DNA of 64,000 nucleotides. It comes from an uncultured Clostridia bacterium. GTDB lineage: Bacteria; Bacillota; Clostridia; Christensenellales; UBA1242. The stretch spans positions 87,232 through 151,231 of the forward strand of contig CALVNE010000001.1 in NCBI GenBank assembly GCA_944349515.1, written 5' to 3'. A program made the translations under genes and the position numbers. The notes below the pieces were generated by a model that had not been told where the DNA came from, did no database searches, and saw only the letters and a list, made by a program, of their open reading frames with translations. Positions 39,226-64,000 of the stretch are shown piece after piece; positions within the stretch are counted from its first letter, which is position 1, and every line of letters begins with the position of its first letter.

Positions 39226-39372
39226 GCGGGCGGGCGCAAGGCAAGCGCGGGCTAACCGCGCTTGCGCTCGCCGAATGGCGAGCCTTCTTCCCGCGCGGAA
39301 GGGCAAGGCGAAGAGGCGCTAAAAAAATCTGTGGTGCGCGGGAAGGACTTGCGCCCGCCAAAGGCGCTCACC
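39226..39372 (+). ncRNA. GC-rich multi-hairpin element between trpS and alaS (unclassified)
   Basis: A 12-bp closing stem pairs GGCGGGCGCAAG (39229-39240) with CTTGCGCCCGCC (39348-39359). Inside are GCAAGCGCGG-gctaa-CCGCGCTTGC (39241-39265), GCTCGCC-gaat-GGCGAGC (39266-39283) and further GC stems. Confidence 0.6.
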
Positions 39373-39444
39373 GGAACCCGTTTCCTAAGAGGAAATAATA
39401 ATTAAAACAACAACTTTTGTAAGTTAATAGGAGTTAGATAAAAG

Positions 39445-48917: not shown

Positions 48918-50417
48918 TCAATACTCGAAAAGGTTGTTGCTAGTAAAGACTGGGTCGCAGGTGATGTTGATGCCGAGTTTTTTGAGAGTGGTCTCTTCGC
49001 TGGATGGCAGAATGTAGGTGGCATGGGCTTCACAACCGTGAAGCTCAGGGAGGCAAGCTAGTGCTTTCTTTGCTTTTTCGTTTTTGGCTGAGCATATTGA
49101 GAGCGCCACAAGGATGTCATCCACGGTCAGCAGAGTGCAATGTGATTTTAAGATGTTTGTGCGATAGGACACAATTGGAAGAAGGATATCATCGGTGATT
49201 ATGTCGTAGTCATCTCCGAGTCCTGCAAGCGTTCTTAGTGCGTTCAAGACAACTGCACCACTTGCTGTGATGACTTTTTTGGACTTGCCTGTGACAACTT
49301 TTCCGTCTGGAAGTTCCAGTGCGACAGTTGGGTAGCCATAGTCTTTGGCGGTCTGGCGTGCCACACCGATAACTTTGAAGATGTCATCCTTAACGCCAAC
49401 TTCGCTGACAAGAGATTTGTTGCGTTCTAAATTATCAAAGGTGATTTGACCTTTTTTGTAGTCACATTCGGCGCGGTAATATCTTCGGAGTATTTCCTTT
49501 TTAGCGGAAAGTTGAGCGAGTTTGTCATCGGTTATTGCGTCTTTAAGCATATTGACACCCATGTCGGTTGGGGATTTATACACTTCCTTTCCTGTGATTT
49601 TATGTAATATGTTTTGTAAGATTGGGAAAACTGCGATGTCGCGGTTATAGTTTATCGCAAGCGTGCCATAGGCGTTGAAGTGGAATGGGTCGATTTGGTT
49701 GACATCGTTAAGGTCCGCGGTGGCAGCTTCATAGGCGATGTTGACAGGGTGTTTAAGTGGCAAGTTCCAAACAGGGAAGGTTTCAAACTTTGCATAGCCC
49801 GCTTTCACTCCGCGCTTATGCTCATGATAGAGTTGGCTCAGGCAGGTTGCAAGTTTACCGCTTGACGGCCCCGGCGCAGTGACCACAACGAGTGGGCGAG
49901 TGGTTTCGATATACGGATTTGCGCCATAGCCTTCATCACTGACAATCGTCTCCACATCGTTTGGATAGCCCTTGGTGTAGTGATGAAAATACACCTTTTC
50001 TCCACGCTGTTCAAGTTTTTGAGCGAACTTTTGTGCGCTTGACTGACCTTTGAAAAGGGTGATAACAAAGGAGGAAACATATAGGTTAAGTTCGCGCATA
50101 TTGTCGACAAGTCTTAAAACCTCGTCGGCGTAGTTGAGTCCTAAGTCAGCGCGAATTCTGTTCTTTTCAATGTCGTTGGCGCTTATGCACAAAACAATTT
50201 CCACCTTATCTTTCATCTTTTGAAGGAGTTTGATTTTGATGTTAGGGTCAAAGCCTGGAAGCACGCGTGCGGCATGAAGGTCATCAAAAATCTTTCCGCC
50301 GAGTTCAAGATAGAGTTTGTTGTTAAACTTTTTAATTCTTTTATTGATGTTTTCGCTTTGAAGTTTAAGGTATAGTTCATTATCAAAGCAAGTTTTGTTC
50401 ATTTCTTTCTTTTTCAT
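48918..50417 (-). CDS. UPF0371 / DUF1846 family protein
   Basis: 499 aa. LYLELGGKIFDDLHAARVLPGFDPNIKIKLL is typical of this family. The RBS is AGGAGA. Confidence 0.7.
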   Translation of the reverse strand: MKKKEMNKTCFDNELYLKLQSENINKRIKKFNNKLYLELGGKIFDDLHAARVLPGFDPNIKIKLLQKMKDKVEIVLCISANDIEKNRIRADLGLNYADEVLRLVDNMRELNLYVSSFVITLFKGQSSAQKFAQKLEQRGEKVYFHHYTKGYPNDVETIVSDEGYGANPYIETTRPLVVVTAPGPSSGKLATCLSQLYHEHKRGVKAGYAKFETFPVWNLPLKHPVNIAYEAATADLNDVNQIDPFHFNAYGTLAINYNRDIAVFPILQNILHKITGKEVYKSPTDMGVNMLKDAITDDKLAQLSAKKEILRRYYRAECDYKKGQITFDNLERNKSLVSEVGVKDDIFKVIGVARQTAKDYGYPTVALELPDGKVVTGKSKKVITASGAVVLNALRTLAGLGDDYDIITDDILLPIVSYRTNILKSHCTLLTVDDILVALSICSAKNEKAKKALACLPELHGCEAHATYILPSSEETTLKKLGINITCDPVFTSNNLFEY

Positions 50418-50500
50418 ATCATTTCTCCTAATAAATAGTATAACCTATTCGTCAAAAATTTCATAACGAATTTGAAAACTTTTCGCATTTTTATTGGAAA

Positions 50501-51073
50501 ATGAAGCAAATTAATTTTATGGATATCAAAACTTCGCTACTTTTAATAATACCAGCGGTTGTGATAATTTTGCTAATATTTCCTATCTTTTTAGAGGTTA
50601 AAATTTCCTTTAATCCTTTAAAAAATCGTGGGGTGGTGGCACTTTTTTTATTTAAGAAAAAGTTGATTTACTACTATGTCGAGATGCACGGCAAATACAT
50701 AACCCTTGTAAACGACACGGAGACCAAGCAAGAGGAACTTGAATTTGATAGCCCTAAGTTTGCGGTTATTGAAGAGTTTATTAAGCAGGTTAAGGACAAA
50801 GTGAGATTGAAATATCTTTTTATTTACTATAACATAGGTCTTGGCGATGCTTTTCGCTCTGCCATGTGCGCAGCGAGCGTCAATCAACTTTTAAATTTTA
50901 TCTTTATCAATCTTAAAAGCAAAAAGCCGACTGCGTCCTTTTGCATATATGACACAGTTTCCTATAATCGCACCATCTTTGAAATGGCGGGTAGAATGAA
51001 AATTTCAATTTCTCTTTTCGATTTGGTATATTCTTTTATCTATTCAACCATAATATCAAAGAACAAAATGTAA
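50501..51073 (+). CDS. DUF2953 (YtfI-like) sporulation-associated membrane protein
   Basis: It has an N-terminal TM segment, and its size and position directly upstream of ytfJ match the Bacillus ytfIJ arrangement. Confidence 0.45.
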   Translation: MKQINFMDIKTSLLLIIPAVVIILLIFPIFLEVKISFNPLKNRGVVALFLFKKKLIYYYVEMHGKYITLVNDTETKQEELEFDSPKFAVIEEFIKQVKDKVRLKYLFIYYNIGLGDAFRSAMCAASVNQLLNFIFINLKSKKPTASFCIYDTVSYNRTIFEMAGRMKISISLFDLVYSFIYSTIISKNKM

Positions 51074-51078
51074 ACTAT

Positions 51079-51118
51079 TTATGGTGTATTATGCATTGCA
51101 TACTACACCACATATGGT
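51079..51118. repeat. Palindromic interspersed element, copy D
   Basis: TTATGGTGTATTATGCA-T-TGCATACTACACCACAT, then ATGGT. It sits 17 nt upstream of the ytfJ ATG. Confidence 0.8.
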
Positions 51119-51134
51119 ATATAAAGGAGAGATT

Positions 51135-51542
51135 ATGAAACATTATCAAACAGAAAGTTCGGTAAGCGACTTAATTGAAAGCGCCTTTGAAAAAATTAAA
51201 ACGATTGTTGACACTGGCACGATTGTCGGCGAAAAGTTGGAGACAAGTGACGGCACTGTGATTATTCCTATCTCAAAGGTGACTGTCGGCTATGTTGTTG
51301 GCGGTGGCGAGTATGCCGATTTGTCGGCTAGGCGTGTTGCCAATCACTATCCACTTTCTGGCGGTTCTGGTGGCGGTATGAGTGTGACACCTGTCGGCTT
51401 TTTGATTGAAAGCGAAGGGCAGTTTTCCTTTATCAATGTGGAGAATAAGGACCTATATCAAACTGTTTTAAACATGTTCAATGCATTTTTGGCGGAAATT
51501 CAAAGAAAGGACAAGGAAAAAGATGAAGAGAGCAAAAAGTAA
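51135..51542 (+). CDS. ytfJ: Sporulation protein YtfJ/GerW
   Basis: It has the RBS AAAGGAGAG, TIVGEKLETSDGTVIIPISKV and SGGSGGGMSVTPVGFL. The track's 51081 start is translated palindrome sequence. Confidence 0.85.
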   Translation: MKHYQTESSVSDLIESAFEKIKTIVDTGTIVGEKLETSDGTVIIPISKVTVGYVVGGGEYADLSARRVANHYPLSGGSGGGMSVTPVGFLIESEGQFSFINVENKDLYQTVLNMFNAFLAEIQRKDKEKDEESKK

Positions 51543-52674
51543 GAAAATTTTGATTTCTTTTATCGCCTTCGTTTTGCTTGCTGGCATACTTTTATCCTCT
51601 CTATCCCTACTTTTAATCAATGTGGTAAATGCCGAGATGTACACCTCTGGACTTGCTGGATGTGTGCTTGAAACATCGTCGGGAAGGGTGCTGTATTCCA
51701 AAAATAAGGATAAAAAGTTAGCAATGGCAAGCACAACAAAGATTATGACCGCGATAACCGCCATTGAAAATTGCGCTAATTTGGATGAAAAGTTTGAAAT
51801 ATCGCCTAAGGCAGTGGGCATTGAGGGCACTTCGCTCTATTTACGAAAGGACGATGTTTTTTCCACGCGCGATTTGCTTTATGCACTTATGCTTATCTCT
51901 GGAAATGACGCTTCGGTGGCGATTGCCGAACATGTGGGCGGTTCAACAAGCGAATTTGTTACCATGATGAACGACTTAGCGAAAAAAATCGGCGCAAAAA
52001 ATACGCATTTTGCTAACACTCATGGCTTAGATGCGGACGGACACTACACAACTGCCTATGACCTTGCGCTTATAACTGCTTACGCGCTTGAAAATGAGAC
52101 TTTCAAAGAGATTGTTTCCACTAAAAACATAAAAATTACGAACGGCGAAGGCGAGAATAGGTATTTGAAGAATAAAAACAAACTTTTGTTTAGGCTTGAC
52201 GGTTGTATCGGCGTGAAAACTGGCTTCACTAATGACGCTGGACGCTGTCTAGTTTCCGCAATCGAGCGTGACGGAGTGCGATTTGTGTGCGTGGTTCTCA
52301 ACTGCGGACCGATGTTTGAAGAGAGCGAAACACTTTTAAACACCTGCGCGAATACCTACAAACTCTACGACTTAACAAAAATTTACGACTACAAAAAACT
52401 CTTGCCTGTCTATGACGGAAGAAAGGACAATGTGAAGATTGGCACGAACGAAAGTTTTATCTATCCGCTTTCGGAGTGGGAGAAAAACAACTTGAAGATT
52501 GAGTATAACCTTGTTGACCATGTGGACGCACCACTCAAAAAGGGTAGCGAAGTTGGCGAAATCAAAATATTTTTGGGCAAAGACTTGCTATTTTCCGAAA
52601 AAGTTTATACAATAGAAGAGGTTAAACCAAAGACAATCTTCCAACGCTTTAAGGAGTTTGCTGGAAACTGGTAA
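51523..52674 (+). CDS. D-alanyl-D-alanine carboxypeptidase (S11, PBP5-type)
   Basis: It has a signal/TM segment and the SxxK (ASTTKIMT), SGND and KTGFT motifs. It overlaps the ytfJ 3' end. Confidence 0.88.
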   Translation: MKRAKSKKILISFIAFVLLAGILLSSLSLLLINVVNAEMYTSGLAGCVLETSSGRVLYSKNKDKKLAMASTTKIMTAITAIENCANLDEKFEISPKAVGIEGTSLYLRKDDVFSTRDLLYALMLISGNDASVAIAEHVGGSTSEFVTMMNDLAKKIGAKNTHFANTHGLDADGHYTTAYDLALITAYALENETFKEIVSTKNIKITNGEGENRYLKNKNKLLFRLDGCIGVKTGFTNDAGRCLVSAIERDGVRFVCVVLNCGPMFEESETLLNTCANTYKLYDLTKIYDYKKLLPVYDGRKDNVKIGTNESFIYPLSEWEKNNLKIEYNLVDHVDAPLKKGSEVGEIKIFLGKDLLFSEKVYTIEEVKPKTIFQRFKEFAGNW

Positions 52675-52690
52675 CCTTTTAAGGATAGTT

Positions 52691-53389
52691 ATGCGTATAA
52701 ACAAATTTTTAAGCACGGCGGGCGTGGCTTCACGAAGAAAGTGCGATGAACTTATTAAAAACGGCAAAATTTTCGTCAATGGCAAAGTGGTGACAAGTTT
52801 TGTCGATATAGACGAGAAGAAAGATGTTGTGGAATATAACGGAGAAAGGCTGACCTTGCCTTCCTCTTTTATATATCTAAAAATGAACAAGCCAAAGGGT
52901 TATGCTTGCACGGCGAGTGACGAAAAGGGCAGAAAGACAATCTTCGACTTACTTGACGATAAGAGCGTTAGGTTTTTCAATGTGGGCAGGCTTGACTATG
53001 ACACCGAGGGGCTTATCTTTCTCACTAATGACGGCGACTTTGCTAACCGCATCATCCATCCAAAATTTGAGATTGATAAGGAATACATTGTAACCGTTGA
53101 GGGCAAGATGCAAGAGAGCGAGTTTGCAGTTCTAAGAAATGGCGTTGTGGTGAACGGCGAAAGGATGCCAGAGGCGCGAGTGAAACCTATCTCTTTTGAC
53201 GGCAAATTCACCAAACTTTCGGTTGTTATAAATGAAGGGCAAAACCATCAAGTTAGGCGTATGTTTGAGGCGATAGGTCGCGACATCAAACTTTTGAAGC
53301 GCGTGCGCATTGGGAGTGTGAAACTTGGCAATCTCTATCGCGGAAAGGTTAAACCTATGACCGAAGAAGAGATTGAAAGTTTTAAGTGA
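52691..53389 (+). CDS. rluB: RsuA/RluB-family pseudouridine synthase
   Basis: It starts with the S4 domain MRINKFLSTAGVASRRKCDELI. It also has GRLDYDTEGL and NHQVRRM. Confidence 0.85.
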   Translation: MRINKFLSTAGVASRRKCDELIKNGKIFVNGKVVTSFVDIDEKKDVVEYNGERLTLPSSFIYLKMNKPKGYACTASDEKGRKTIFDLLDDKSVRFFNVGRLDYDTEGLIFLTNDGDFANRIIHPKFEIDKEYIVTVEGKMQESEFAVLRNGVVVNGERMPEARVKPISFDGKFTKLSVVINEGQNHQVRRMFEAIGRDIKLLKRVRIGSVKLGNLYRGKVKPMTEEEIESFK

Positions 53390-53404
53390 GAACAAGGAGA
53401 AAGT

Positions 53405-53983
53405 ATGATACTCTATCATGGAACACAAGATAAAAATTTGAAAAAACTTGTCACAAATCATAACACTGGACGCGGTGGCGACACAGAAAATATATATTTA
53501 ACAGACAGTTACGCATGTGCCTTTATGTATGCGGCATCGACAATGAGATTTTTTCAATTTGATAAGAAAACGGACACTTTATGGGTTATGGAAAAAGCGC
53601 CTAATGCTTTTGAGAAGATGTATAAAGGGCATGGATGCTTGATTTTTAAGATTGAAATTGAAAATCCTAAGAAAGTGGAGCATCCGACCGGTCATGTATT
53701 TTCGTATAACAAAGACATCGTTTTGGATAAAGAAAATTGCGATGTGATTGATGATTGCTATGAGAAACTACTTGAACTTGAAAAGGAAGGCAAGGTTAAA
53801 CTACAACGCTGGACCGATTACACAAAAGAAGAGCAAGAAAACGTTAAAAACAACTTTATCAGTCGATTTAAACCATATATGGAAGATGAAAAGAAAAGAT
53901 TTCCAGAAGAGTATAAACTGCTTGTGTCTTTCTATCCAGAATTGAAGGTTGAAGAGAAGGAAGATAAAAAAGAGGCGAAATGA
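53405..53983 (+). CDS. Hypothetical protein with an N-terminal LYHGT motif (possible ART-fold)
   Basis: It starts MILYHGTQDK...ENIYLTDSYACAFMYA and has an acidic, Lys-rich C-terminus. This is a motif-level resemblance only. Confidence 0.5.
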   Translation: MILYHGTQDKNLKKLVTNHNTGRGGDTENIYLTDSYACAFMYAASTMRFFQFDKKTDTLWVMEKAPNAFEKMYKGHGCLIFKIEIENPKKVEHPTGHVFSYNKDIVLDKENCDVIDDCYEKLLELEKEGKVKLQRWTDYTKEEQENVKNNFISRFKPYMEDEKKRFPEEYKLLVSFYPELKVEEKEDKKEAK

Positions 53984-55191
53984 AAGTTGCGATAATCGGT
54001 GCGGGTGCGTCTGGGTTAATGCTAGGCGGACTGCTTGTTAAAAAGGGCTTTGATGTGACGATTTTTGACCACAACGAAAAGGCGGGCAAAAAATTATTTA
54101 TCACTGGCAAGGGCAGATGCAACATAACCAACCTTTGCGATGAAACGGAATTTTTGAAAAATGTGGTGCGAGGCGGTAAGTTTTTAACGAGCGCGCTATA
54201 CTCTTTCAATTCCTATGACACTGTGGAGTTTTTTAATAATCTTCATTTGAAAACCAAGGTGGAAAGAGGCAATAGAGTTTTTCCAGAGAGCGACAAGTCA
54301 AGCGATGTTATCAAAGCACTTTTAAAGCACTGCGAGGGCGTGAACTTCCTCTATAACCAGAATGTCACCGATGTCAAAGTGGCGAAAAGTGTAGAAAACG
54401 AACAAAAGTTGGTGGTCACTGCAAGCGGGAAGGAGTATGTTTTTGACAAAGTGGTCATCGCAACAGGCGGAGCGAGTTACAAGACGACTGGCAGTGACGG
54501 AAGCGGATATAAATTTGCCGAAAGTTTTGGGCACAGAGTGGAGAAGATTGTGCCAGCGCTTTGTCCGATTAAACTTAATGATGATGTCCACGCGCTTATG
54601 GGGCTAAGCCTAAAAAATGCCACTTTGAAGGCAAAGTTTGACGGCAAAAATAAGGAATTTTTCGGCGAGATGATGTTCACTGGTGACGGCATAACAGGGC
54701 CGATAGTGCTTTCCTTGTCAAGTTACATAAACAGGGCAAAAAGCGTGGAACTTTCACTTGATTTAAAGCCAGCACTGACGCTTGAACAACTAGACGCACG
54801 CCTACTACGCGATTTTGAAGAGAATAAAAACAAAAACATTTCATATATATTTAAAGGGCTTATGCCGTCATCACTTGTGCCATTCTTTGCGAAAAAGTGC
54901 GGGGTGGATGAGAGTAAAAAGGTGCATGATATATTAAAGGAGGAGCGAAGAAAAATCTCTGAAACTTTAAAAAATCTTCCGCTTTCGTTTAATTCGCTCT
55001 ATCCACTTGACGCTGGCATAATCACAAGCGGTGGGGTGGCTCTTGATGAAATCAATCCAAAGACCTTTGAGAGCAAACTTGTTAAAAATCTCTACTTCAT
55101 CGGCGAAGTTTTGGATATAGACGCATTAACCGGTGGCTTTAACCTTCAAATCGCCTTTTCAACGGCATTTTTAACAGCAAAAAATATGTAA
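53980..55191 (+). CDS. HI0933/YhiN-family FAD-dependent oxidoreductase
   Basis: It has MKVAIIGAGASGL and GKKLFITGKGRCNITN. Confidence 0.8.
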   Translation: MKVAIIGAGASGLMLGGLLVKKGFDVTIFDHNEKAGKKLFITGKGRCNITNLCDETEFLKNVVRGGKFLTSALYSFNSYDTVEFFNNLHLKTKVERGNRVFPESDKSSDVIKALLKHCEGVNFLYNQNVTDVKVAKSVENEQKLVVTASGKEYVFDKVVIATGGASYKTTGSDGSGYKFAESFGHRVEKIVPALCPIKLNDDVHALMGLSLKNATLKAKFDGKNKEFFGEMMFTGDGITGPIVLSLSSYINRAKSVELSLDLKPALTLEQLDARLLRDFEENKNKNISYIFKGLMPSSLVPFFAKKCGVDESKKVHDILKEERRKISETLKNLPLSFNSLYPLDAGIITSGGVALDEINPKTFESKLVKNLYFIGEVLDIDALTGGFNLQIAFSTAFLTAKNM

Positions 55192-55303
55192 ACATTTGAC
55201 AATTTAAGAAAAACTTTATATCATACTATTAATTATTAAAATTTATGATTTTTAGTTAGTGTAATAATTTAAAAATAAAACAACGTTTCAAAAGGAGTTT
55301 AAT

Positions 55304-55921
55304 ATGTTACTTTGGCTGGTAAGAATATTACTTTGGATACCGCTTTCCATTCTTCATCCAACATATATCTATGGAAGAAAAAATCGTCCTAAGGGTAAGG
55401 CGATACTATGTTCGAATCATCGTTCAAATTGGGACATTGTCAACTATCTTCTTCACACCAAGGAAAAGGTTGTGATTTTGGCAAAAAAAGAACTTGCAAA
55501 AAACAAGTTTTTCGGTTTTATCTTAAAGCATTTAGGAGCAATTTTCATCGACCGTGAGGGGAACGATATAAATGCAATTAAAGAGTGCATGAAGGCATTA
55601 AAGGCGGGCAAGAAACTGTTTATCTTTCCAGAAGGCACAAGGCTTAAAGACGAAAGTGCGGTTCTCGGCGAAGTGAAAAGCGGACTTGCGCTTATCGCCA
55701 TCAAAACAAAAACACCGATAGTTCCTATGTGGGTGGTGAGTAAGCCAAAAGCGTTTAGAAAATCAAAAATCATAATCGGCGAGCCTTATGAACTCTCTGA
55801 TTTCTACGGCAAAAAACTTGATGATATAGCACTTGAAGAAGCAAATGAGATAGTAAAGGACAAAATGCTCCAATTAAAATATGATTATGACAAAAAGTTG
55901 CAAACGAAGAAGAATAAATAA
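55304..55921 (+). CDS. plsC: 1-acyl-sn-glycerol-3-phosphate acyltransferase
   Basis: It has NHRSNWD (HxxxxD) and FPEGTR. Confidence 0.85.
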   Translation: MLLWLVRILLWIPLSILHPTYIYGRKNRPKGKAILCSNHRSNWDIVNYLLHTKEKVVILAKKELAKNKFFGFILKHLGAIFIDREGNDINAIKECMKALKAGKKLFIFPEGTRLKDESAVLGEVKSGLALIAIKTKTPIVPMWVVSKPKAFRKSKIIIGEPYELSDFYGKKLDDIALEEANEIVKDKMLQLKYDYDKKLQTKKNK

Positions 55922-55955
55922 GTTAAGAGTGAAAAGTGAAGAGTGAAAAGTTGAG
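55921..55955 (+). repeat. Five contiguous AGTGAAG-type heptads
   Basis: AGTTAAG AGTGAAA AGTGAAG AGTGAAA AGTTGAG, starting at the last base of the plsC stop codon. Confidence 0.8.
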
Positions 55956-55975
55956 GATAGTTTTTATCGATTATC

Positions 55976-56003
55976 AAAAAGATTAGGGCGACTTAATCTT
56001 TTT
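55976..56003 (+). terminator. plsC terminator (module copy 1)
   Basis: AAGATTA-gggcgact-TAATCTT followed by TTT. It is near-identical to 57508-57536. Confidence 0.7.
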
Positions 56004-56127
56004 ATCGTTTAGGCGGTTTGGTGGCAAATAAGATAGATTTAATTTCAATAAAAAGTGCAATGTAATTTTTTCGCAAAAAATAATGTAATGTATAGTTAAG
56101 GAATGGTGTAATGTTTACAAAAAAAGG

Positions 56128-56156
56128 TTGAAATTTGGTTGGGCTTATGTTACAAT
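56128..56156 (+). promoter_or_regulatory. Promoter, TTGAAA-17-TACAAT
   Basis: The box spacing is exact. It is followed by the strong RBS AAGGAGGGAGG. Confidence 0.55.
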
Positions 56157-56184
56157 CAGACTAGATGCTAAGGAGGGAGGCAAA

Positions 56185-57327
56185 ATGGAAAATTATATTG
56201 ATAACATAATAAAAGCGATAAGGCAAGATAGAAATGCGCAAGATAAACTTATCAACTATCTAAAATCAACCGGCGACACTGAGTTGTTTACCGATCTTTC
56301 TTCTTCCGGGAAAATGCTACTAGAAGTTGCAGCGGGAGAAAAACTGAAATTGTTCATTTTAGAGAATTATCCAGAACTTGCGCGGGTTCAAAATAAGAAG
56401 GGCAACACTATTTTGTTTGATACAACTGAGAAGGTGCACTGTAAGGCGCTAGAAGTGGACCCAAGCCTTGCGCGTATTCAAAATGAGGACGGTGAAACAT
56501 TTTTACATATATGTAATAGATTTTACATGGCGCCAAACATGGCACCAATTTTAGCCCTAGAAATTGACCCGACTCTTGCGCGGATACAGGATAAAAGAGG
56601 TAGAACGTTTGTTCATGGGTCTGATGCCGAAGTAATGCTTAAAGCGTTAGAGGTAGACCCAAGTCTTGCACGCATTCAGGATAATGACGGTCAAACATTT
56701 TTGTTTTTTTACAGTTTGTATAAACGCTCAAAAGATGTTGTACTTAAAGCATTAGAGGTGGACGCGAGCCTTGCGCAGATTAAGGATAACGACGGAGAAA
56801 CATTTTTGCACAACATCACAATCATAAAATATCCGCCGGTGGCAAGCGTGGATACTGCAATGGCTGTGCTAAAGGCATATCCAGAACTTGCAAGAATTAA
56901 AGACAGTGAAGGTAACACCTTTCTGCACTACGCGAATACTAGAAGTTTTGAAGATGTGATTGTGGAGGCACTAAAAATCGACCCAATCCTTGCGGAAATT
57001 CAAAATAAACAAGGCGACACATTTTTGCACACCTTCTTTGACGGGCCAGACATGTTTCAACTTCCTTACACTAAGTTATTGACAGCATTAAAATCTCACC
57101 CAAATCTTGCGCGAATTCAAAATGCGGACGGCGATACGTATTTGCATTATGCTGCCAAATTTGGGCATAAAAACATCAAGGAGTTTGCCGAAAGTTTGGA
57201 CCCGAGCCTTGCCGAAATTCGAAACGAAAACGGGCAAACATACCTTGATTTGTTCCCTAAAAAAAGTGTTGAAGAGTTAAAAATTTCCCTCGACGAAGTT
57301 TTGGATGAAAGAAGAAGAGAACTTTAA
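56185..57327 (+). CDS. Ankyrin-like repeat protein (~9 degenerate repeats)
   Basis: The recurrent unit is ALEVDPSLARIQ(D/N)xDG(E/Q)TFLH. This fits the ankyrin G-x-T-x-LH core. Confidence 0.7.
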   Translation: MENYIDNIIKAIRQDRNAQDKLINYLKSTGDTELFTDLSSSGKMLLEVAAGEKLKLFILENYPELARVQNKKGNTILFDTTEKVHCKALEVDPSLARIQNEDGETFLHICNRFYMAPNMAPILALEIDPTLARIQDKRGRTFVHGSDAEVMLKALEVDPSLARIQDNDGQTFLFFYSLYKRSKDVVLKALEVDASLAQIKDNDGETFLHNITIIKYPPVASVDTAMAVLKAYPELARIKDSEGNTFLHYANTRSFEDVIVEALKIDPILAEIQNKQGDTFLHTFFDGPDMFQLPYTKLLTALKSHPNLARIQNADGDTYLHYAAKFGHKNIKEFAESLDPSLAEIRNENGQTYLDLFPKKSVEELKISLDEVLDERRREL

Positions 57328-57507
57328 AAATAGGCGCATTCGGTGAACAAGCGTAGAGTGGTTAAATAAAAAATGAAAAGTTAGCGATAGTTTTTAGATT
57401 ATTCCAATTAAATTTGCTTTAAAATGTTAAAAATCAATATATGAGAGCATACGAAAGACACAATAAGAATTTAAAAAAGAATATTAAAACGTTTTAAAAA
57501 TTTGTAT

Positions 57508-57536
57508 GAAAAGATTAGGGCAACTTAATCTTTTTT
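57508..57536 (+). terminator. Terminator (module copy 2)
   Basis: AAGATTA-gggcaact-TAATCTT followed by TTTT. Confidence 0.7.
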
Positions 57537-57651
57537 ATCGTTTAGGAGTGTAATGGTGGAAAAATTGTTATAAAATTTTTAATTTTCTTTGACAAACTAT
57601 TGTTATTTTTGCTATTCTACTATTAGATTTAACATTTTACAAGGAAAAACT

Positions 57652-58692
57652 ATGAGCGAAGAATTTAATTTAGATTTAATTGATAAAACTTTCACAACCT
57701 ACAAAAAAGGACAAGTTTTCGACGGCGTGGTGTTGCTTAAGCGCGAGGACGGAGTGATTTTCAATATTGGCGGAAAGAATGATGCCTTTATTCCGTCAAG
57801 CGATTTTGATAATTTTGATGATGTTAAGATTGGCGACAGATTTTCGGTGATTATCACAAAGCAGAAAAATGAAGAGGGCTTGATTGAGGCAAGTATGAGG
57901 CTTGCGCGCGATTTGAAAATTGCCAACCAAAATGCGCAATCTCTCCGCCTTGGAAGTAAGTTCACCTTTGTTGTGACAAGTGTGAACAACGGCGGACTTC
58001 ATTCGAAACTTGGCGACTACACAGTGTTTGTGCCGGCGGGCGAGGCGTCACTTAAATATGTGAGAGATTTAAAGAGTTTTGTCGGCAAGCAGTTAGAGGT
58101 GATTGTCACTGAAATTGACCATGAGAAAAAGAGTATCGTGGCAAGTGCGAAACTTCTGCAAGAGCAGATTAGGGTGGCAACCGAAAATAACTTTTGGAAC
58201 TCCATATTTATCAACAAAATTGTGACTGGCAAAGTTAAAAAGAATATGCCGTATGGTGCGTTTGTTGAAGTGGATGGCGTGGATTGTTTCCTTCACATTT
58301 CAAACATCTCCTATGACAAACTTGAAAATGTCAGTGATGCTATTCATGAGGGCGAAACTTACACCTTTAAGGTGATAGGGCTTGATAGAGAGAATAAAAA
58401 GGTGGAACTTTCCCTTAAAGCGCTTTTGCCGGACCCTAAGATTGAACGCATAAAAGAACTTCAAGTGGGCGAAGTTTATACTGGCAAGGTGGTTAAACTT
58501 TTAAGATTTGGCGCGATTGTTAAAGTGCCAAATGGCGCAACTGGGCTTCTTCACATACAAAACTGCACAGAGAACCGAACAAAAAATATCTACGAACTTG
58601 TTAAAGTTGATGATGAGATTGAAGTTGAGGTTATAAGCAAAGACGAAGAAGAGGGCAAGGTTTCGTTTAAGCTCAAAAATATGATTAACTAA
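57652..58692 (+). CDS. rpsA: S1 RNA-binding domain protein (four S1 domains; ribosomal protein S1 homolog)
   Basis: It has four S1 motifs: GQVFDGVV, G..FTFVVT, VTGKVKKNMPYGAFVEV and YTGKVVKLLRFGAIVKV. Confidence 0.75.
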   Translation: MSEEFNLDLIDKTFTTYKKGQVFDGVVLLKREDGVIFNIGGKNDAFIPSSDFDNFDDVKIGDRFSVIITKQKNEEGLIEASMRLARDLKIANQNAQSLRLGSKFTFVVTSVNNGGLHSKLGDYTVFVPAGEASLKYVRDLKSFVGKQLEVIVTEIDHEKKSIVASAKLLQEQIRVATENNFWNSIFINKIVTGKVKKNMPYGAFVEVDGVDCFLHISNISYDKLENVSDAIHEGETYTFKVIGLDRENKKVELSLKALLPDPKIERIKELQVGEVYTGKVVKLLRFGAIVKVPNGATGLLHIQNCTENRTKNIYELVKVDDEIEVEVISKDEEEGKVSFKLKNMIN

Positions 58693-58820
58693 AATTTAGT
58701 GCGGACACCAACTACGCTTAACGCGGGTACGAAAAATAAATTTTCCTAATTGTTACTCAATTGTTTTAACAGCCCATAAGTTTGTATTGTTAACAAATTT
58801 AAAATTTATTTAAAATTTAG

Positions 58821-58849
58821 GTGACAAAAATTTGTTAGTTTGTTATAAT
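58821..58849 (+). promoter_or_regulatory. Promoter, GTGACA-17-TATAAT, driving the metK leader
   Basis: The box spacing is exact. Confidence 0.55.
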
Positions 58850-58856
58850 GTTAATA

Positions 58857-58982
58857 TATCCATAGAGAGTGTGCGAGGGACAGCCCCTTTGACCACACAG
58901 CAACCTACATTTTGCAAGGTGCTAATGGCTGACCGATGGTGCTTTAAAAATTTATTTAACCATCGGAAACGATGGTTTTTTC
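58857..58982 (+). promoter_or_regulatory. SAM-I (S-box) riboswitch with terminator
   Basis: The aptamer reads CCATAGAGAGTGTGCGAGGGACAGCCCCTTTGACCACACAGCAACC...AGGTGCTAATGG...CGATGG. The terminator AACCATCG-gaaa-CGATGGTT plus T-run lies at 58958-58981. It sits upstream of metK. Confidence 0.9.
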
Positions 58983-59105
58983 TTACTCTCTTTGGCTTAA
59001 AAGGAGGAGAGTATGTGGTGAAAAGAAGTATTAAATATACAAATTTGTGGTTTCAATAAAACTTACTTTGATAAATATATAAAATAATAAAAAGGAGAGA
59101 AAAAA

Positions 59106-60227
59106 ATGAAAAAGATAGTTACAAGTGAAAGTGTAAACATCGGGCATCCAGATAAAACCTGCGATTATATCGCCGATTGCTTTCTTGATGAGGCATTAAA
59201 GCAGGATAAATTTAGTCAAATGGCGGTGGAGTGCGCCATAAAAAACAACAAACTTTTCATATACGGCGAGGCGACAACCAGCGCAAAGTTAGACTATGAA
59301 AAGATTGCCTTAAAAGCACTTAGAGAAATTGGTTATAAGGAAGATTTTGAGATAATAAAAGAAATTAGCGAGCAAAGCGCGGAGTTAAACCGAGCGGTGG
59401 TCAAAGATAAACTTTGCGCCAACGACCAAGGCTTAGTGTTTGGATACGCCACAAATGAAACGCCGGAGTTTATGCCTCTGCCAATTATGGTAGCACATAA
59501 GTTGATGATGAACTATGATGAATTTAGGCGTAAAGATGAAAATTTCTTTTTTGATGCAAAAAGTCAAGTTTCAGTTTTATATGAAGATGATAAGCCTAAG
59601 TATATCACAAACATCTTAGTAAGTGTGTCACATAGCGAAGATATTTCAAACGAAGAGATTTGTAAAAGAATATTAGAAAATGTCGTTTTAAAAACACTTG
59701 CAGAATATGAAAATTATTATAACGATAAAACTAAGATTATGATAAATCCAAGTGGTAGATTTACTATATATGGAAGCTACGGCGATTCGGGTTGCGTGGG
59801 CAGAAAGATTGTTGTGGATAGTTACGGCGGAGTGGCGCGTGTTGGAGGCGGGTGTTTCTCTTCTAAAAATGCCACCAAAGTGGATAGAAGTGGGGCATAT
59901 TATGCACGATACGTGGCAAAAAATATTGTGGCGAATAATCTTGCTGAACGTTGCGAGGTGGAAGCGGACTATGCGATTGGGCTTGAGAATGCACTCAATA
60001 TCAACATTGACTGCTTTGGAACGAACAAATTGCCAATGGAAGAGATTTATGAGATTGTGAAAAGTAATTTTGATTTTTCCCTTCAAAATATCATAACAGA
60101 ACTTGACCTTTTAAAGCCAATTTATAAAAATACGGCATGCTTTGGGCATTTTGGAAGGGAAGAATTTAGTTGGGAGAAGGTTAAGGCGAACCTTCGGTTC
60201 GCAGTGAAGCAAACGCAAAGCGTTTGA
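59106..60227 (+). CDS. metK: S-adenosylmethionine synthetase (divergent, 373 aa)
   Basis: It has SESVNIGHPDKTCD, NDQGLVFGYA, GRKIVVDSYGG and KVDRSGAYYARY. Its last ~15 codons overlap the hairpin array. Confidence 0.9.
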   Translation: MKKIVTSESVNIGHPDKTCDYIADCFLDEALKQDKFSQMAVECAIKNNKLFIYGEATTSAKLDYEKIALKALREIGYKEDFEIIKEISEQSAELNRAVVKDKLCANDQGLVFGYATNETPEFMPLPIMVAHKLMMNYDEFRRKDENFFFDAKSQVSVLYEDDKPKYITNILVSVSHSEDISNEEICKRILENVVLKTLAEYENYYNDKTKIMINPSGRFTIYGSYGDSGCVGRKIVVDSYGGVARVGGGCFSSKNATKVDRSGAYYARYVAKNIVANNLAERCEVEADYAIGLENALNINIDCFGTNKLPMEEIYEIVKSNFDFSLQNIITELDLLKPIYKNTACFGHFGREEFSWEKVKANLRFAVKQTQSV

Positions 60228-60330
60228 GTGAAGGGAAGGCGGAGCCTTCCAGTGAAGGAGCACTAAAGTGTTCAGTGAAGAGAAATCTTGCGATTTCTAG
60301 TGAAGGCAAACCTTGCGGTTTGCAGTTGTG
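60178..60330 (+). repeat. Array of six unrelated 7-bp-stem hairpins separated by the invariant heptamer AGTGAAG
   Basis: The hairpins lie at 60186-60202, 60210-60226, 60234-60250, 60258-60273, 60281-60298 and 60306-60323. AGTGAAG starts at 60203, 60227, 60251, 60274 and 60299. Confidence 0.9.
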
Positions 60331-60344
60331 GAAAATTTTAAAGA

Positions 60345-60366
60345 CAAACGCTAGCCCGTTTTTTTC
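60345..60366 (+). terminator. Weak candidate metK terminator
   Basis: AAACG-ctagcc-CGTTT followed by T-run. The stem is only 5 bp. Confidence 0.3.
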
Positions 60367-60457
60367 CTTCACTCTTCACTCTTCACTTTCTAAATTTATC
60401 AAAAACTCTTCACTGCGAGCCAATGGCTCGCCTTCACTTTATTCTCTTCACTTTTTT
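60367..60457 (-). repeat. Six AGTGAAG heptads in inverted orientation (CTTCACT on +), one flanked hairpin
   Basis: CTTCACT starts at 60367, 60374, 60381, 60408, 60432 and 60446. The hairpin GCGAGCC-aat-GGCTCGC lies at 60415-60431. The last heptad is followed by T6. Confidence 0.85.
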
Positions 60458-60558
60458 AGTTAAGTTAAAGAAATATATTGATTTCTTTGACTTATTTTTT
60501 TATATTTGTTAAAATATTTTTGCAAGGATTTGCAAAATCTTTTATTTTGGAGAGAAAT

Positions 60559-61563
60559 ATGAAAGTTGTTGTGGACGCTTTTGGTGGCGATAATGCTCCT
60601 AAGGAAGTGGTGGAAGGCGCCATTATGGCGGTAAATCAAAATAAAGGCCTCACCGTTGTTTTAACCGGCGACGAGAAGAAGATTAAAGAGGTTTTAAACA
60701 GCAGAAATGAGCGTATTGAAATTGTGCACTCAAGCGAGGTCATCACAAATGACGACACGCCGACGGTTGCGATAAGGCAGAAGAAGGACTCTTCGCTTGT
60801 TAAGGCGTTTGACCTTTTGAAAGAAGATAAGGATGTTATCGGGCTGGTGTCTGCGGGTAGCACGGGCGCCATACTTTCTGGCGCAATTATGAAGATAGGG
60901 CGCATTAAGGGCATATCGCGCCCAGCACTTGGACCTATTCTTCCAACTAAAAAGGGAAGCGATGTGATAATTATCGACAGCGGTGCGAATGTTGACTGCA
61001 AGAGCATAAACCTACTCCACTTTGCCATTATGGGCAGCGCGTATTACTCGATTGTGGAAGGTGTGGAGCATCCGCGCATTGCGCTACTCAACAACGGAAC
61101 GGAAGAGCATAAGGGCAACGAACTTGTGAAAGAAACCTACCCTCTTATGAAGAAACTGCCGATAAACTTTGTTGGCAATGTGGAAGGCAAGGAAGTTATG
61201 TCTGGCAATGTCGATGTTATAGTCACTGACGGCTTTGCTGGAAATGCGCTTTTGAAAGGTGTGGAGGGCACTGCAAGCGCGATTCTTTCGGTATTAAAAA
61301 GTGAGATAAAATCTAGACCTATGTCTATGATAGGCGCGCTTTTCATGAAAAAGACTTTTAAATCACTTAAAACCAAACTTGACGCCAACAAGCACGGCGG
61401 TGCACCATTCTTGGGCGTTAAAAAACTTATTGTGAAGAACCACGGCTCATGCGGTCGCGACAATATACTAGCGTCTATCAATCAGGTTGTCAAACTTCAT
61501 GAAAACAACCTTATTGAAAAAATTGAAAAGATGATTGGAGATATGAACATTGAAGAAAATTGA
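60559..61563 (+). CDS. plsX: Phosphate acyltransferase PlsX
   Basis: It starts MKVVVDAFGGDNAP after the RBS GGAGAG. The track's upstream extension is spurious. Confidence 0.92.
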   Translation: MKVVVDAFGGDNAPKEVVEGAIMAVNQNKGLTVVLTGDEKKIKEVLNSRNERIEIVHSSEVITNDDTPTVAIRQKKDSSLVKAFDLLKEDKDVIGLVSAGSTGAILSGAIMKIGRIKGISRPALGPILPTKKGSDVIIIDSGANVDCKSINLLHFAIMGSAYYSIVEGVEHPRIALLNNGTEEHKGNELVKETYPLMKKLPINFVGNVEGKEVMSGNVDVIVTDGFAGNALLKGVEGTASAILSVLKSEIKSRPMSMIGALFMKKTFKSLKTKLDANKHGGAPFLGVKKLIVKNHGSCGRDNILASINQVVKLHENNLIEKIEKMIGDMNIEEN

Positions 61564-62179
61564 TGAAAAATTAGGCGTGGAGTTTAAAAACAGAAAGTAT
61601 ATCGACGAGGCGCTCACTCATCCGTCCAAATCTAAAAATAACTATCAGCGTTTGGAGTTTTTGGGCGACAGCATTTTAGACTTTTTGGTCGGCGAATATC
61701 TCTTTTTAAACTCCAATAAGTCAGAGGGCGATTTAACGGTGCTTCGCGCCCACTTTGTCTCCGAGGAATATCTTTCTGAGTGTTTCGATAAACTTGACGT
61801 AGAGAGCGAGTTAAATTTAGGCAAAAGTTTGCAAGGTAAGGTGACACGCGCCATTAAGGGCGATATTTTTGAGGCGATAATAGGCGCGATATACCTTGAA
61901 AAAGGCATTGAGTTTACAAGAAATTTCATAATCGAAAAATTGAATTTAGAGAACTTTGAAAATGTTGAGGACGATAACTATAAATCGCAACTTCAAGAAC
62001 TTGTGCAGGCGAATTTTAAATGCACAATGAAGTATGTGACCGAGCGCGAGGGCGACAACTTTGTTTCCAAATTTTACATGGACGAGGACCTAATTTCCAC
62101 CGGCTATGGCAAGGACAAAATTAGTGCCGAGCAGAACGCCGCCTTTGTTGCCATCAAAAAACTTTTTAAAGACGAGTGA
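61550..62179 (+). CDS. rnc: Ribonuclease III
   Basis: It has ERLEFLGDSILDF-type signature (QRLEFLGDSILDFLV) and a C-terminal dsRBD. The TTG start lies 9 nt after GGAG and overlaps the plsX stop. Confidence 0.88.
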   Translation: MKKIDEKLGVEFKNRKYIDEALTHPSKSKNNYQRLEFLGDSILDFLVGEYLFLNSNKSEGDLTVLRAHFVSEEYLSECFDKLDVESELNLGKSLQGKVTRAIKGDIFEAIIGAIYLEKGIEFTRNFIIEKLNLENFENVEDDNYKSQLQELVQANFKCTMKYVTEREGDNFVSKFYMDEDLISTGYGKDKISAEQNAAFVAIKKLFKDE

Positions 62180-62294
62180 TTTTAGTTTCTAATTAAAAAA
62201 ATTTAAGCCGAAAAATTTGTAAAATATTAAAAATCTTTTTGAATGCTAGGCGAGATGTGATAAAATATTTTTAGTTTAATTTAAGGATAAAGTT

Positions 62295-64000
62295 ATGTAT
62301 TTTAAGAAAATTGAGATGATTGGATTTAAGTCGTTTGCGGATAAGACCACCATTGAATTTAATGGCGGATTTACTGCTATTGTCGGACCTAACGGTTGCG
62401 GAAAGAGCAATGTTTCCGACGCTATCCGCTGGGTTTTGGGCGAGCAGAGCGCGAAGTCGCTTCGTGGCGACAATATGCAGGATGTCATCTTTAAAGGCAC
62501 GGAAAAGCGAAGAAGCCTATCATACTGCGAGGTGACATTGACTTTTGATAACACTGACAGATTTTTCAACATCTCATATGATGAGTTAAGTATAACAAGA
62601 AAACTTTATCGCTCTGGCGAAAGTGAATACCAAATCAACAAAAACACATGTAGGTTGAAGGACATCACCGACCTACTTTTTGACAGCGGTATCGGCAAAA
62701 ACGGCTATTCTGTTATCGGACAGGGTAAGGTCAGCGAGATTGTCGACGAAAAGCCAGAAGAGCGCCGAGCGATGTTTGAAGAGGCGGCAGGTATTGCCAA
62801 ATTTAAAAGCCGAAAGGATGAGGCGGAAAGAAAACTCCAACGCACGCGTGAAAATTTGGTGAGAATTGACGATATCGTTGCCGAAATTGAAAGGCAGATG
62901 GGACCACTTAAAAAGCAGGCTGAGGACGCCAAAAAATATTTGGAGTATAAAGGGCAACTTAAAGATTTAGAGGTCAACGCATACATCTATTCCTATGAAA
63001 ACGCGCACAATGTTAAGGCGGAGATTAACCAAAGACTGCAAGGTCTTGCCGAAGAACTCTTTAATCGTCAGGCGGAACTTGAAGATACCTCGAAAAAATA
63101 CGACGAAACGCTTGCCAAAATGGATAAGTTTGATAAGGAAATTTCTCATCTCAACGAGGAACTTCTTCGCGTCACCGTGGAAATTGAAAAGCAAGAGGGC
63201 GAAGTTAAGGTCATTCGCGAGAAAATCAACTACACGCAAAGAGAGAACGATAGACTCCACCTTGATTTATCCAATGCCAAAACCGTTTTAGAGAACTGCG
63301 AAGAGGCGCGCGTTGAGAAAAAGGCGGAGTTAGATAAACTTTCTGAGCGACTTGAAACACTGAAAAAGACCTATGCGGGCTTGTCTAATAAACATCTTGA
63401 AATTGTTGATGAGATGACGGCGAGTGAAAACGAGGCAGGGTTATCTCAACAAAAGTTTATCGACACCTTGGGTTCACTTGCCGATGTTAAAAGTAATGCG
63501 TCGCGCTATGAGGCAGAGAAGAACATTTTAAAGGAAAATTTAGAGAATTTAACAAAGAACTTAAACGAAGCGCAAGGAAAGGTAGAAAGTTTAAGAAAAT
63601 TGAACGCCGACACCTCCAAAAATGTCGAACTTCTTTCTAAGTCCTTTGAAGAAATCAAGGAAAATTGCAAAGATGTTGCCAGCAAAAACTTTATCTCCAC
63701 CAAAAAATTGCGAGATTTAGAGAACGATAAGGCGAACCTCGCCACACAGATTAAGGTGTATGAGAATAGACGCAAACTCCTTCTTGAAATGCAGGCAGAG
63801 TTTGAAGGCTATGCCTATGCGGTTAAAAAGATTTTAAAGGACAGCGAAAGAAACAGTGCGCTCAAAAGCAAAATGGTGGGCGTGCTTGCCTCTCTTATTA
63901 AAGTGCCTGCGCAGTTTGAAACGGCAGTTGAGGTGGCACTCGGCGCGGCAGTTCAAAACATCGTCACCTTCAACGAAAATGGAGCAAAGGACCTCATTGC
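62295..64000 (+). CDS. smc: Chromosome partition protein Smc (3' end lies outside the window)
   Basis: It is not in the ORF track because it is open-ended. It starts MYFKKIEMIGFKSFADKTTIEFNGGFTAIVGPNGCGKSNVSDAIRWVLGEQSAK, and a coiled-coil follows. The antisense ORFs listed in this span are shadows. Confidence 0.93.
   Translation, partial: MYFKKIEMIGFKSFADKTTIEFNGGFTAIVGPNGCGKSNVSDAIRWVLGEQSAKSLRGDNMQDVIFKGTEKRRSLSYCEVTLTFDNTDRFFNISYDELSITRKLYRSGESEYQINKNTCRLKDITDLLFDSGIGKNGYSVIGQGKVSEIVDEKPEERRAMFEEAAGIAKFKSRKDEAERKLQRTRENLVRIDDIVAEIERQMGPLKKQAEDAKKYLEYKGQLKDLEVNAYIYSYENAHNVKAEINQRLQGLAEELFNRQAELEDTSKKYDETLAKMDKFDKEISHLNEELLRVTVEIEKQEGEVKVIREKINYTQRENDRLHLDLSNAKTVLENCEEARVEKKAELDKLSERLETLKKTYAGLSNKHLEIVDEMTASENEAGLSQQKFIDTLGSLADVKSNASRYEAEKNILKENLENLTKNLNEAQGKVESLRKLNADTSKNVELLSKSFEEIKENCKDVASKNFISTKKLRDLENDKANLATQIKVYENRRKLLLEMQAEFEGYAYAVKKILKDSERNSALKSKMVGVLASLIKVPAQFETAVEVALGAAVQNIVTFNENGAKDLI

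Follow-up and report, generated by a model that had tools for sequence, protein, structure and literature searches.

A 64,000-nt stretch of an uncultured Clostridia bacterium (contig CALVNE010000001.1 of assembly GCA_944349515.1, referred to below as the window) carries, at the 3′ end of the gene metK, an array of small hairpins separated by the invariant heptamer AGTGAAG. The array is one arm of a multi-copy, modular element that resembles the Gut-1 RNA of Rfam (RF01706), and it may act as a structure in the metK transcript. We give this reading, whose mechanism is inferred, about an even chance. The array itself is genuine and conserved, is not a chance pattern, and represents a variant, not described before, of an orphan class of structured repeats. 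The native metK 3′ end has been displaced by the element, which fills the spacer between metK and plsX. The family to which it belongs consists of multi-copy intergenic elements of uncultured, spore-forming and probably gut-dwelling Clostridia.

The element at the metK 3′ end

The sequence-only reading of the window had reported six hairpins joined by invariant AGTGAAG linkers at the end of metK, and the sequence, a repeat finder and shuffled controls bear this out. The left arm of the element (60179–60323, plus strand) comprises six hairpins of 6–7 bp with loops of 3–4 nt and five identical copies of AGTGAAG. It opens with a head, the variant heptamer GGTTAAG (60179–60185), which is followed on the same strand by hairpin 1 (GCGAACC-ttc-GGTTCGC, 60186–60202), linker 1 (60203–60209), hairpin 2 (CAAACGC-aaa-GCGTTTG, 60210–60226), linker 2 (60227–60233), hairpin 3 (GGAAGGC-gga-GCCTTCC, 60234–60250), linker 3 (60251–60257), hairpin 4 (GAGCAC-taaa-GTGTTC, 60258–60273), linker 4 (60274–60280), hairpin 5 (AGAAATC-ttgc-GATTTCT, 60281–60298), linker 5 (60299–60305) and hairpin 6 (GCAAACC-ttgc-GGTTTGC, 60306–60323). 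Hairpins 1, 2, 3, 5 and 6 are perfect 7-bp inverted repeats; hairpin 4 has 6 bp, one G.T among them. Hairpins 1 and 6 are alike except for a single base in each arm, and the stems of hairpins 1 and 3 are also found at L108, a locus in another genome. The stems abut the heptamers without a single spare base, and the heptamers recur with periods of 24, 24, 23 and 25 nt. The arm closes with a conserved tail, AGTTGTGGAAAATTTTAAAG (60324–60343, plus strand), which starts with AGTTGTG and whose form, AGTTGTGGAAAR..TTTTA, is shared by the family arrays L039, L051, L108, L119, L120 and L121.

The window contains 20 copies of AGTGAAG, 11 of them inside 60203–60452, compared with 6.4 ± 2.4 copies in shuffled sequences. 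The window holds five heptamer-hairpin-heptamer units, compared with 0–1 in 20 shuffles. The possibility that the array is an assembly artefact, raised earlier, is ruled out because five independent assemblies of the same species carry an identical 281-nt element.

The array alone is not the true object. Further downstream, the complement of the heptamer, CTTCACT, is present in six copies (starting at 60367, 60374, 60381, 60408, 60432 and 60446), and a seventh hairpin, which reads GCGAGCC-aat-GGCTCGC on the plus strand, is flanked by CTTCACT copies. The object to be explained is therefore an element of ~280 bp (60179–60457), a quasi-palindrome in which two convergent arrays flank a short centre (60344–60366). 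Three tandem heptamers of the minus strand (CTTCACT ×3 on the plus strand, 60367–60387) are predicted to pair with the plus-strand linkers. The seventh hairpin belongs to the minus-strand unit AGTGAAG GCGAGCC-att-GGCTCGC AGTGAAG (60408–60438), which is the best match of our unit covariance model (49 bits), and its stem recurs in L039 and L119. The arm ends with the outermost minus-strand heptamer, followed by TTTTT on the plus strand (60446–60457). Across the 64-kb window the unit model matched only 60179–60452 and, weakly, 55921–55941. The element occupies the metK–plsX spacer up to a promoter-like site for plsX, which a promoter scan placed just beyond it (60487–60515, plus strand).

If the element is treated as one RNA, the predicted fold pairs the linkers with the CUUCACU copies, and the hairpins protrude as branches. 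The predicted minimum free energy (MFE) of the whole element is −114.7 kcal/mol (z = −9.2), compared with −67.6 kcal/mol for the same element restricted to local pairs, and the predicted probabilities of the heptamer:anti-heptamer pairs range from 0.4 to 0.99. The minus strand is predicted to fold equally well. A U-run directly after the hairpin was seen for none of the six left-arm hairpins. A terminator scan from metK to the plsX promoter found no intrinsic terminator between metK and the element and flagged only 60415–60431, with a weak tail; U5 at 60453–60457 stands directly after the whole branched fold.

The metK coding sequence (59106–60227, plus strand) was recognized as an open reading frame (ORF) whose near-identical homologues carry the Pfam S-AdoMet synthetase domains. 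The proposed overlap between the array and the end of this gene proved correct. The ORF ends at 60227, the array sets in 47 nt ahead of the stop codon, and the stop itself (TGA, 60225–60227) is formed by the last two bases of hairpin 2 and the first A of the next heptamer; the array thus encodes the C-terminal ~13 residues of MetK (ANLRFAVKQTQSV) together with the stop. No such tail is present in other MetK homologues, whose C-termini read ...SWEKIK(x); it is seen only in element-carrying strains. Upstream of metK, a SAM-I riboswitch (49 bits) and its terminator-like hairpin are found at 58857–58977, and a promoter-like site at 58821–58849.

Strains with ~96% identical MetK carry the same element. 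Across four strains with ~6% difference in metK and plsX, the element is identical at 280–281 of 281 positions. This identity was considered as a sign of selection and then dropped, as other zero-difference blocks of more than 1 kb exist among these strains; since divergence within the species is mosaic, the identity is uninformative on selection. In a comparison of window positions 49340–64000 with strain contig L239, conspecific divergence appeared strongly mosaic, with zero differences in blocks of more than 1 kb (56000–57200) beside blocks of 10–15% and with ~600 nt around 53400–54000 that could not be aligned.

The comparison of orthologous metK 3′ regions suggested by the sequence-only reading revealed that the unit number differs between relatives. 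The 90%-identical relatives (L244 and L252) retain the ancestral MetK C-terminus (..EKIKVLKK*) and have at metK only a hairpin-free remnant, agtaag..agttaag..agttgtgttttaa..agtgaaa. The 95%-identical relatives (L242 and L243) have a different metK 3′ end, and both contigs stop 40 nt past metK. Two independent Logan contigs, L240 and L241, both end inside the array at ...GATTTCTAGTG. Contig ends of this kind suggest assembly breaks caused by repeats or by variation among strains. Between close relatives the element thus grows, degenerates and reshapes the ends of genes. Another observation concerns an in-frame TAG in L244 (3085–3115) and L252: database protein P0014 (376 aa) runs through it, as Q, whereas it ends the sibling P0013 (364 aa). 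Either the gene call is odd, or stop codons may be recoded in that lineage.

Stem pairing and the family in other genomes

Stem statistics were obtained from 17–24 units of four genomes. The share of paired cells is 95.8%, as compared with 68.9% in shuffles and at most 45% when the partners are slid. Watson-Crick pairs number 138 of 144, versus 74 ± 6 when arms are swapped between units, and six of the seven stem pairs show change on both sides. The earlier claim of an invariant linker with variable but paired stems is thus real, compensated changes keeping the stems paired. The additional claim that the stems share no sequence was overstated. Their 5′ arms fit the consensus G-N-R-A-R-N-C, and identical stem 7-mers (GCGAACC, GCGAGCC, GGAAGGC and GAAAACC) recur between genomes, with 7 pairs against 0.06 expected. 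Because of this fit and these identities, the stems are to be regarded as conserved modules and not as spacer-like novelties, and the description of the array as the inverse of CRISPR is an analogy only. What the alignments indicate is a diverged tandem unit in which the linker is under a sequence constraint and the stem under a pairing constraint. GTGAAG itself fits the first part of the 5′-arm consensus, G-N-R-A-R-N, and an origin of the stems through inverted duplication of heptads would be compatible with the data.

The array is not a one-off: pattern and covariance-model searches recover related loci in other genomes. A scan of a genome collection for three spaced heptamers returned at least 118 loci. 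Among the matches listed, most are plain tandem or coding repeats, ~29 are heptamer-hairpin arrays from gut or rumen Clostridia metagenome-assembled genomes (MAGs) plus one Akkermansia MAG, and three have the exact window design (L039 and L108, both of one MAG, and L051). A metagenome scan with the tail included in the pattern yielded three contigs from one further assembly (L119–L121). The window design is found, in several copies, in at least three other uncultured Clostridia genomes, the carriers being MAG E10__bin241 (three sites in L039, and L108), BRZ_PH__bin59 (L051) and ERZ1643251 (L119, L120 twice and L121). Window-type carriers are MAGs labelled Clostridia, without a stated sample type. 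The unit covariance model recovers all window-type units in these other loci with E from 1e-6 to 1e-10. The Akkermansia contig (L007) has an AGTGAAG-hairpin array at 2975–3056, which would extend the design beyond Bacillota if the contig is correctly binned.

The members of the family follow one plan, in which a head is followed by 0–6 units, each an AGTGAAG that may or may not bear a hairpin, and the tail AGTTGTGGAAA closes the array; often a second array is present in convergent orientation. Heads such as AAGTAAG, ACGAAG and GTTAAG precede the arrays in L039, L051, L119 and L120. The heptad series after plsC, which had been thought to be related to the array, has the same head-heptad-tail plan. 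It is a hairpin-free member, GTTAAG AGTGAAA AGTGAAG AGTGAAA AGTTGAGGATAG (55922–55960, plus strand), located directly after the stop codon of the acyltransferase (plsC-like) gene, and it has three heptads in the window and L239 and five in strains L248 and L249. Mixed arrays of bare and hairpin heptads are present in L051, L108, L119, L120 and L121. A half-deleted hairpin in L051 argues that palindromes may be lost as well as gained. AGTGAAG contains TGA and recurs with a period of 7 at 55922–55955 and 60367–60387; three tandem heptads therefore place a stop in all three sense frames and none on the opposite strand. As an explanation of the heptads, this was considered and dropped as unsupported.

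The neighbours of the arrays are housekeeping genes (tsf, ftsY, yidC, spo0A, uvrD, ppx, ychF and the signal recognition particle RNA), and AGTGAAG is oriented with the adjacent gene in 8 of 10 solitary or first arrays. Convergent arms that end in inverted AAGTAAGAGTGAAG...CTTCACTCTTACTT are seen in the window, L039 and L051, with cores of 40, ~130 and ~290 nt between convergent arms. In the convergent pairs of L051 (7490–7890) and L039 (7470–7740), the cores of ~290 and ~130 nt are themselves highly structured.

Gut-1 RNA and other known systems

Human-gut metagenomes were the only source of Gut-1 in the study of Weinberg et al. (2010, PMC2864571), which gave no function; the motif was rated as an RNA, showed covariation at 18 positions and was classed as a stand-alone small RNA (sRNA). 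In the Gut-1 seed alignment, AUAUCAC stands in the downstream half of those lineages that use GUGAUAU as linker (Weinberg et al. 2010, PMC2864571), so that the two Gut-1 halves co-vary. Some copies stand in tandem every 240 nt on contig BAAZ01000130 (Weinberg et al. 2010 supplement, PMC2864571). No work on Gut-1 after that study was found in the literature searched (Gut-1, RF01706, linkers, repeats). The RF01706 consensus contains three variable-sequence hairpins linked by GUGAAAU.

Arrays from Oscillospiraceae, Acutalibacteraceae and Clostridia MAGs with the linker AGTGAAGTT score 51–60 bits against RF01706, for which the gathering threshold of the Rfam covariance model is 50 bits. MAG loci that pass this threshold have the linker exactly AGTGAAG(TT), and the MAGs with Gut-1-type loci stem from rumen, caecum or faeces. 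In the scanned loci, Gut-1 accounts for the 5′ half of a ~175-nt element, the 3′ half being made of AACUUCACU-linked antisense hairpins. Gut-1-type elements have U.G and G.U wobbles on the Rfam sense strand, a covariation between the 5′ end and the centre (TTTGCC:GGCAAA to TTCGCC:GGCGAA) and an invariant tandem G.A hairpin. To the extent that sequence can indicate it, the wobbles, the covariation and the tandem G.A point to RNA. In the Christensenella loci, Gut-1-like linkers occur together with a tail and anti-tail similar to those of the window. In L018 (497–1050), L092, L094 and L111, Gut-1-type elements lie ~20 nt upstream of a small PF05635 gene, a member of the 23S rRNA-intervening-sequence protein family; in L018, an HTH-T5orf172 protein is encoded as well, within a 2.4-kb block that has one such element on either side.

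The window type resembles Gut-1 in having six consecutive covarying hairpins, a conserved purine-rich linker with a GUGAA core, an antisense second array (as in the Gut-1-type MAG loci) and several copies per genome in uncultured Clostridia. It differs in two respects. In Gut-1 the linker ends pair (A-U, U.G) and only GAA is free, whereas the 7-nt window linkers are fully unpaired, the bases beside each window stem being G and A, which are unable to pair. Moreover, Gut-1 has a fixed plan of ~175 nt with position-specific hairpins, whereas the window type has 0–6 interchangeable units and a head and tail of its own. The Rfam model gives no Gut-1 match at E ≤ 10 in window positions 59900–60600, and it is silent even at this cut-off on the window-type and Christensenella loci. 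Since the model is silent and the closing pairs are impossible, the window type is placed beside Gut-1 and not inside it. The family is most likely a divergent relative of Gut-1, judging by its anatomy. The statement that the array belongs to no known repeat class is consequently partly wrong: the anatomy is that of Rfam Gut-1, but the window array fails the RF01706 model. Known RNA families were likewise considered for the array and rejected, as Rfam is empty there at E ≤ 10.

Other repeat systems offer partial parallels. REP units are imperfect palindromes of ~35 nt with one conserved sequence per class, a GTAG motif and a RAYT transposase. REP/BIME elements are often located at gene 3′ ends, and their RNA hairpins can stabilise the upstream mRNA or attenuate transcription. 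Like them, the window family is intergenic and multi-copy and has palindromic units with conserved short linkers. Unlike them, its palindromes are 17–18 nt long, perfect and of several classes, and the conserved part is the linker; no RAYT gene was found among the ~15 flanking genes scanned. The BOX element of Streptococcus pneumoniae has the plan boxA-boxB(n)-boxC with variable internal modules, and the modules of BOX, Correia and ERIC are 45–60 nt long and conserved in sequence. The window family shares with these elements modularity, a variable unit number, terminal inverted symmetry, much predicted RNA folding and a location at gene ends. To our knowledge, none of the three has an invariant 7-nt linker that alternates with covarying mini-hairpins.

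Terminal inverted repeats in the window, L039 and L051 recall a miniature inverted-repeat transposable element (MITE), whereas neither a target-site duplication nor an autonomous element was seen in the loci and flanks examined. With CRISPR the array shares the alternation of constant and variable segments. It differs in that the constant part is 7 nt (23–47 in CRISPR), the ‘spacers’ are palindromic and come from a small shared repertoire, and the copies are short and scattered; no cas genes are present in the window. CsrB/RsmZ sponges and TRAP arrays also place many short single-stranded motifs on one RNA, a parallel that concerns only the protein-binding explanation weighed below, whereas the element here has an antisense arm and its motif is neither GGA nor GAG/UAG triplets. 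Also considered, and dropped as unsupported, were integron attC sites, a core resembling a DnaA box in the tail (TTTTCCACA, minus strand), Rex/CRP half-sites and K-turn or loop-E motifs.

The window contains another putative structure. A GC-rich, multi-branched structure (MFE −100.1 kcal/mol, z = −6.2) is predicted at 39222–39400 on the plus strand, between a trpS-like ORF (38239–39225) and the next gene. It matches no Rfam family at threshold, with a weak c-di-GMP-I match of 23 bits versus 35.

Possible role and rival explanations

In the reading that we consider most likely, the element acts as a structure in the metK transcript: the hairpins would fold first as metK is transcribed, and the heptamers would stay single-stranded. 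The downstream CUUCACU arm would then zip onto the free heptamers, which would yield a branched stem with an energy of about −115 kcal/mol and a U-run behind it. Together with U5, this stem could end and protect the metK mRNA and keep it apart from the plsX promoter. The unit number would shift by slippage or recombination between heptamers. In favour of this reading are the maintained pairing, the complementary arms with their co-variation across lineages, the strand-specific RNA signals of the Gut-1-type relatives, the orientation of 8 of 10 solitary or first arrays with the adjacent gene, and the lack of any other terminator-like site between metK and the plsX promoter.

A number of observations weigh against such a role in RNA. 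The Gut-1 model is silent on the window and on its closest designs, as described above. An antisense partner array is present in only ~3 of 9 window-type loci, and several arrays lie in divergent-promoter regions with no U-run after them; with few partner arms and several arrays lacking a U-run, such a terminator or stabiliser role cannot hold for the whole family. The identity of the element among strains, being uninformative, also counts here. The stems are ~96% Watson-Crick with hardly any wobble, and G.U and A.C pairs were counted at 5:1 among window-type units and at 3:3 among Gut-1-type units. In addition, the loops have a T...C bias on the AGTGAAG strand, which corresponds to GNA/GNRA on the opposite strand. 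The G.U/A.C asymmetry was dropped as a guide to the active strand, the counts being too small and conflicting. The loop bias is real, contradicts the wobble evidence and was set aside for the same purpose. Given so few wobbles, DNA-level palindromes fit at least as well as RNA, and together with the loop bias on the opposite strand this keeps a DNA-level reading alive.

In its explicit form, which we regard as possible though somewhat unlikely, the DNA-level explanation supposes a selfish element of the MITE or REP/BIME kind, with the convergent arrays serving as its terminal inverted repeats or forming REPIN-like doublets. In single-stranded DNA, the hairpins would be targets of a transposase or recombinase, or they would have been perfected by template switching, and any effects in RNA would be incidental. 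Multiple copies, a strictly intergenic location and presence or absence between close relatives are all in line with this, as are the overwritten 3′ end of metK and the breaking of assemblies inside the array. The same holds for the convergent pairs with inverted AAGTAAGAGTGAAG...CTTCACTCTTACTT ends around cores, for the nearly pure Watson-Crick stems with no G.U excess in the Gut-1 type, and for the resemblance of the 5′ arms to the heptamer, which inverted heptad duplication would give. On the other hand, no target-site duplication was seen, neither the L039 nor the L051 pair has direct repeats on its flanks, and the metK site shows sequence replacement and not simple insertion. Neither a transposase nor a RAYT gene was found among the ~15 flanking genes scanned. 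The hairpins seem too varied for sequence-specific recognition, and the strand-specific wobbles and the invariant tandem G.A of the Gut-1-type elements speak for RNA. The heptamer search pattern gave 117 matches in viral contigs, none of the hairpin type, and a phage origin was rejected on this ground.

The invariant linker, the covarying stems and the flush contact between stems and heptamers would also suit an RNA that binds protein multivalently, either in cis or as a sponge, and in which an oligomeric protein reads the single-stranded AGUGAAG copies. The hairpins would then be loop-outs that need only to pair and that keep the heptamers adjacent, and bare and hairpin arrays would be equivalent. 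Bare (AGTGAAR)n runs do share head and tail with the family, Gut-1 has been classed as a stand-alone sRNA, and CsrB/RsmZ, with GGA motifs for CsrA, and TRAP, with spaced triplets, offer analogies. We nevertheless consider this rather improbable, as the antisense arms would sequester the heptamers, the linker variants differ by lineage so that the protein would need to co-vary, and the partner protein is without a candidate. Very unlikely is a set of double-stranded iteron- or operator-like sites for a regulator of metK or plsX. It would account for the direct-repeat heptamers and their inverted copies just upstream of the plsX promoter, but the spacings of 7, 14 and 23–25 bp are out of helical phase, the same arrays adjoin unrelated genes in any position, and compensated spacer changes would have no role in duplex recognition. 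A decayed coding repeat, a chance pattern or an artefact can be considered refuted. The array does cover the last 47 nt of the metK ORF, yet its periods are out of frame and so exclude an in-frame coding repeat of the kind that the sequence-only reading had asked about; the encoded tail is missing from MetK homologues, shuffles give 0–1 unit, and five assemblies agree.

Heptamer arrays and Gut-1 might together form an unrecognised superfamily, a tentative idea that we do not rate as probable. Its members could be a zipped RNA scaffold, a display of AGUGAAG for a protein or the ends of a new mobile element. If the scaffold version were true, invariant linkers and an antisense arm would give a ladder of multi-way junctions; if the mobile version were true, the ends would be built of hairpin modules that arose by inverted heptad duplication. 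The division of constraint between sequence in the linker and pairing in the stem makes the family amenable to specific experiments. For annotation, such elements matter because they rewrite gene 3′ ends, as in the C-terminus of MetK, vary between strains and break metagenome assemblies. In general, these data give Gut-1 a context and suggest that it is half of a quasi-palindromic, multi-copy element and a branch of a wider family with lineage-specific linkers.

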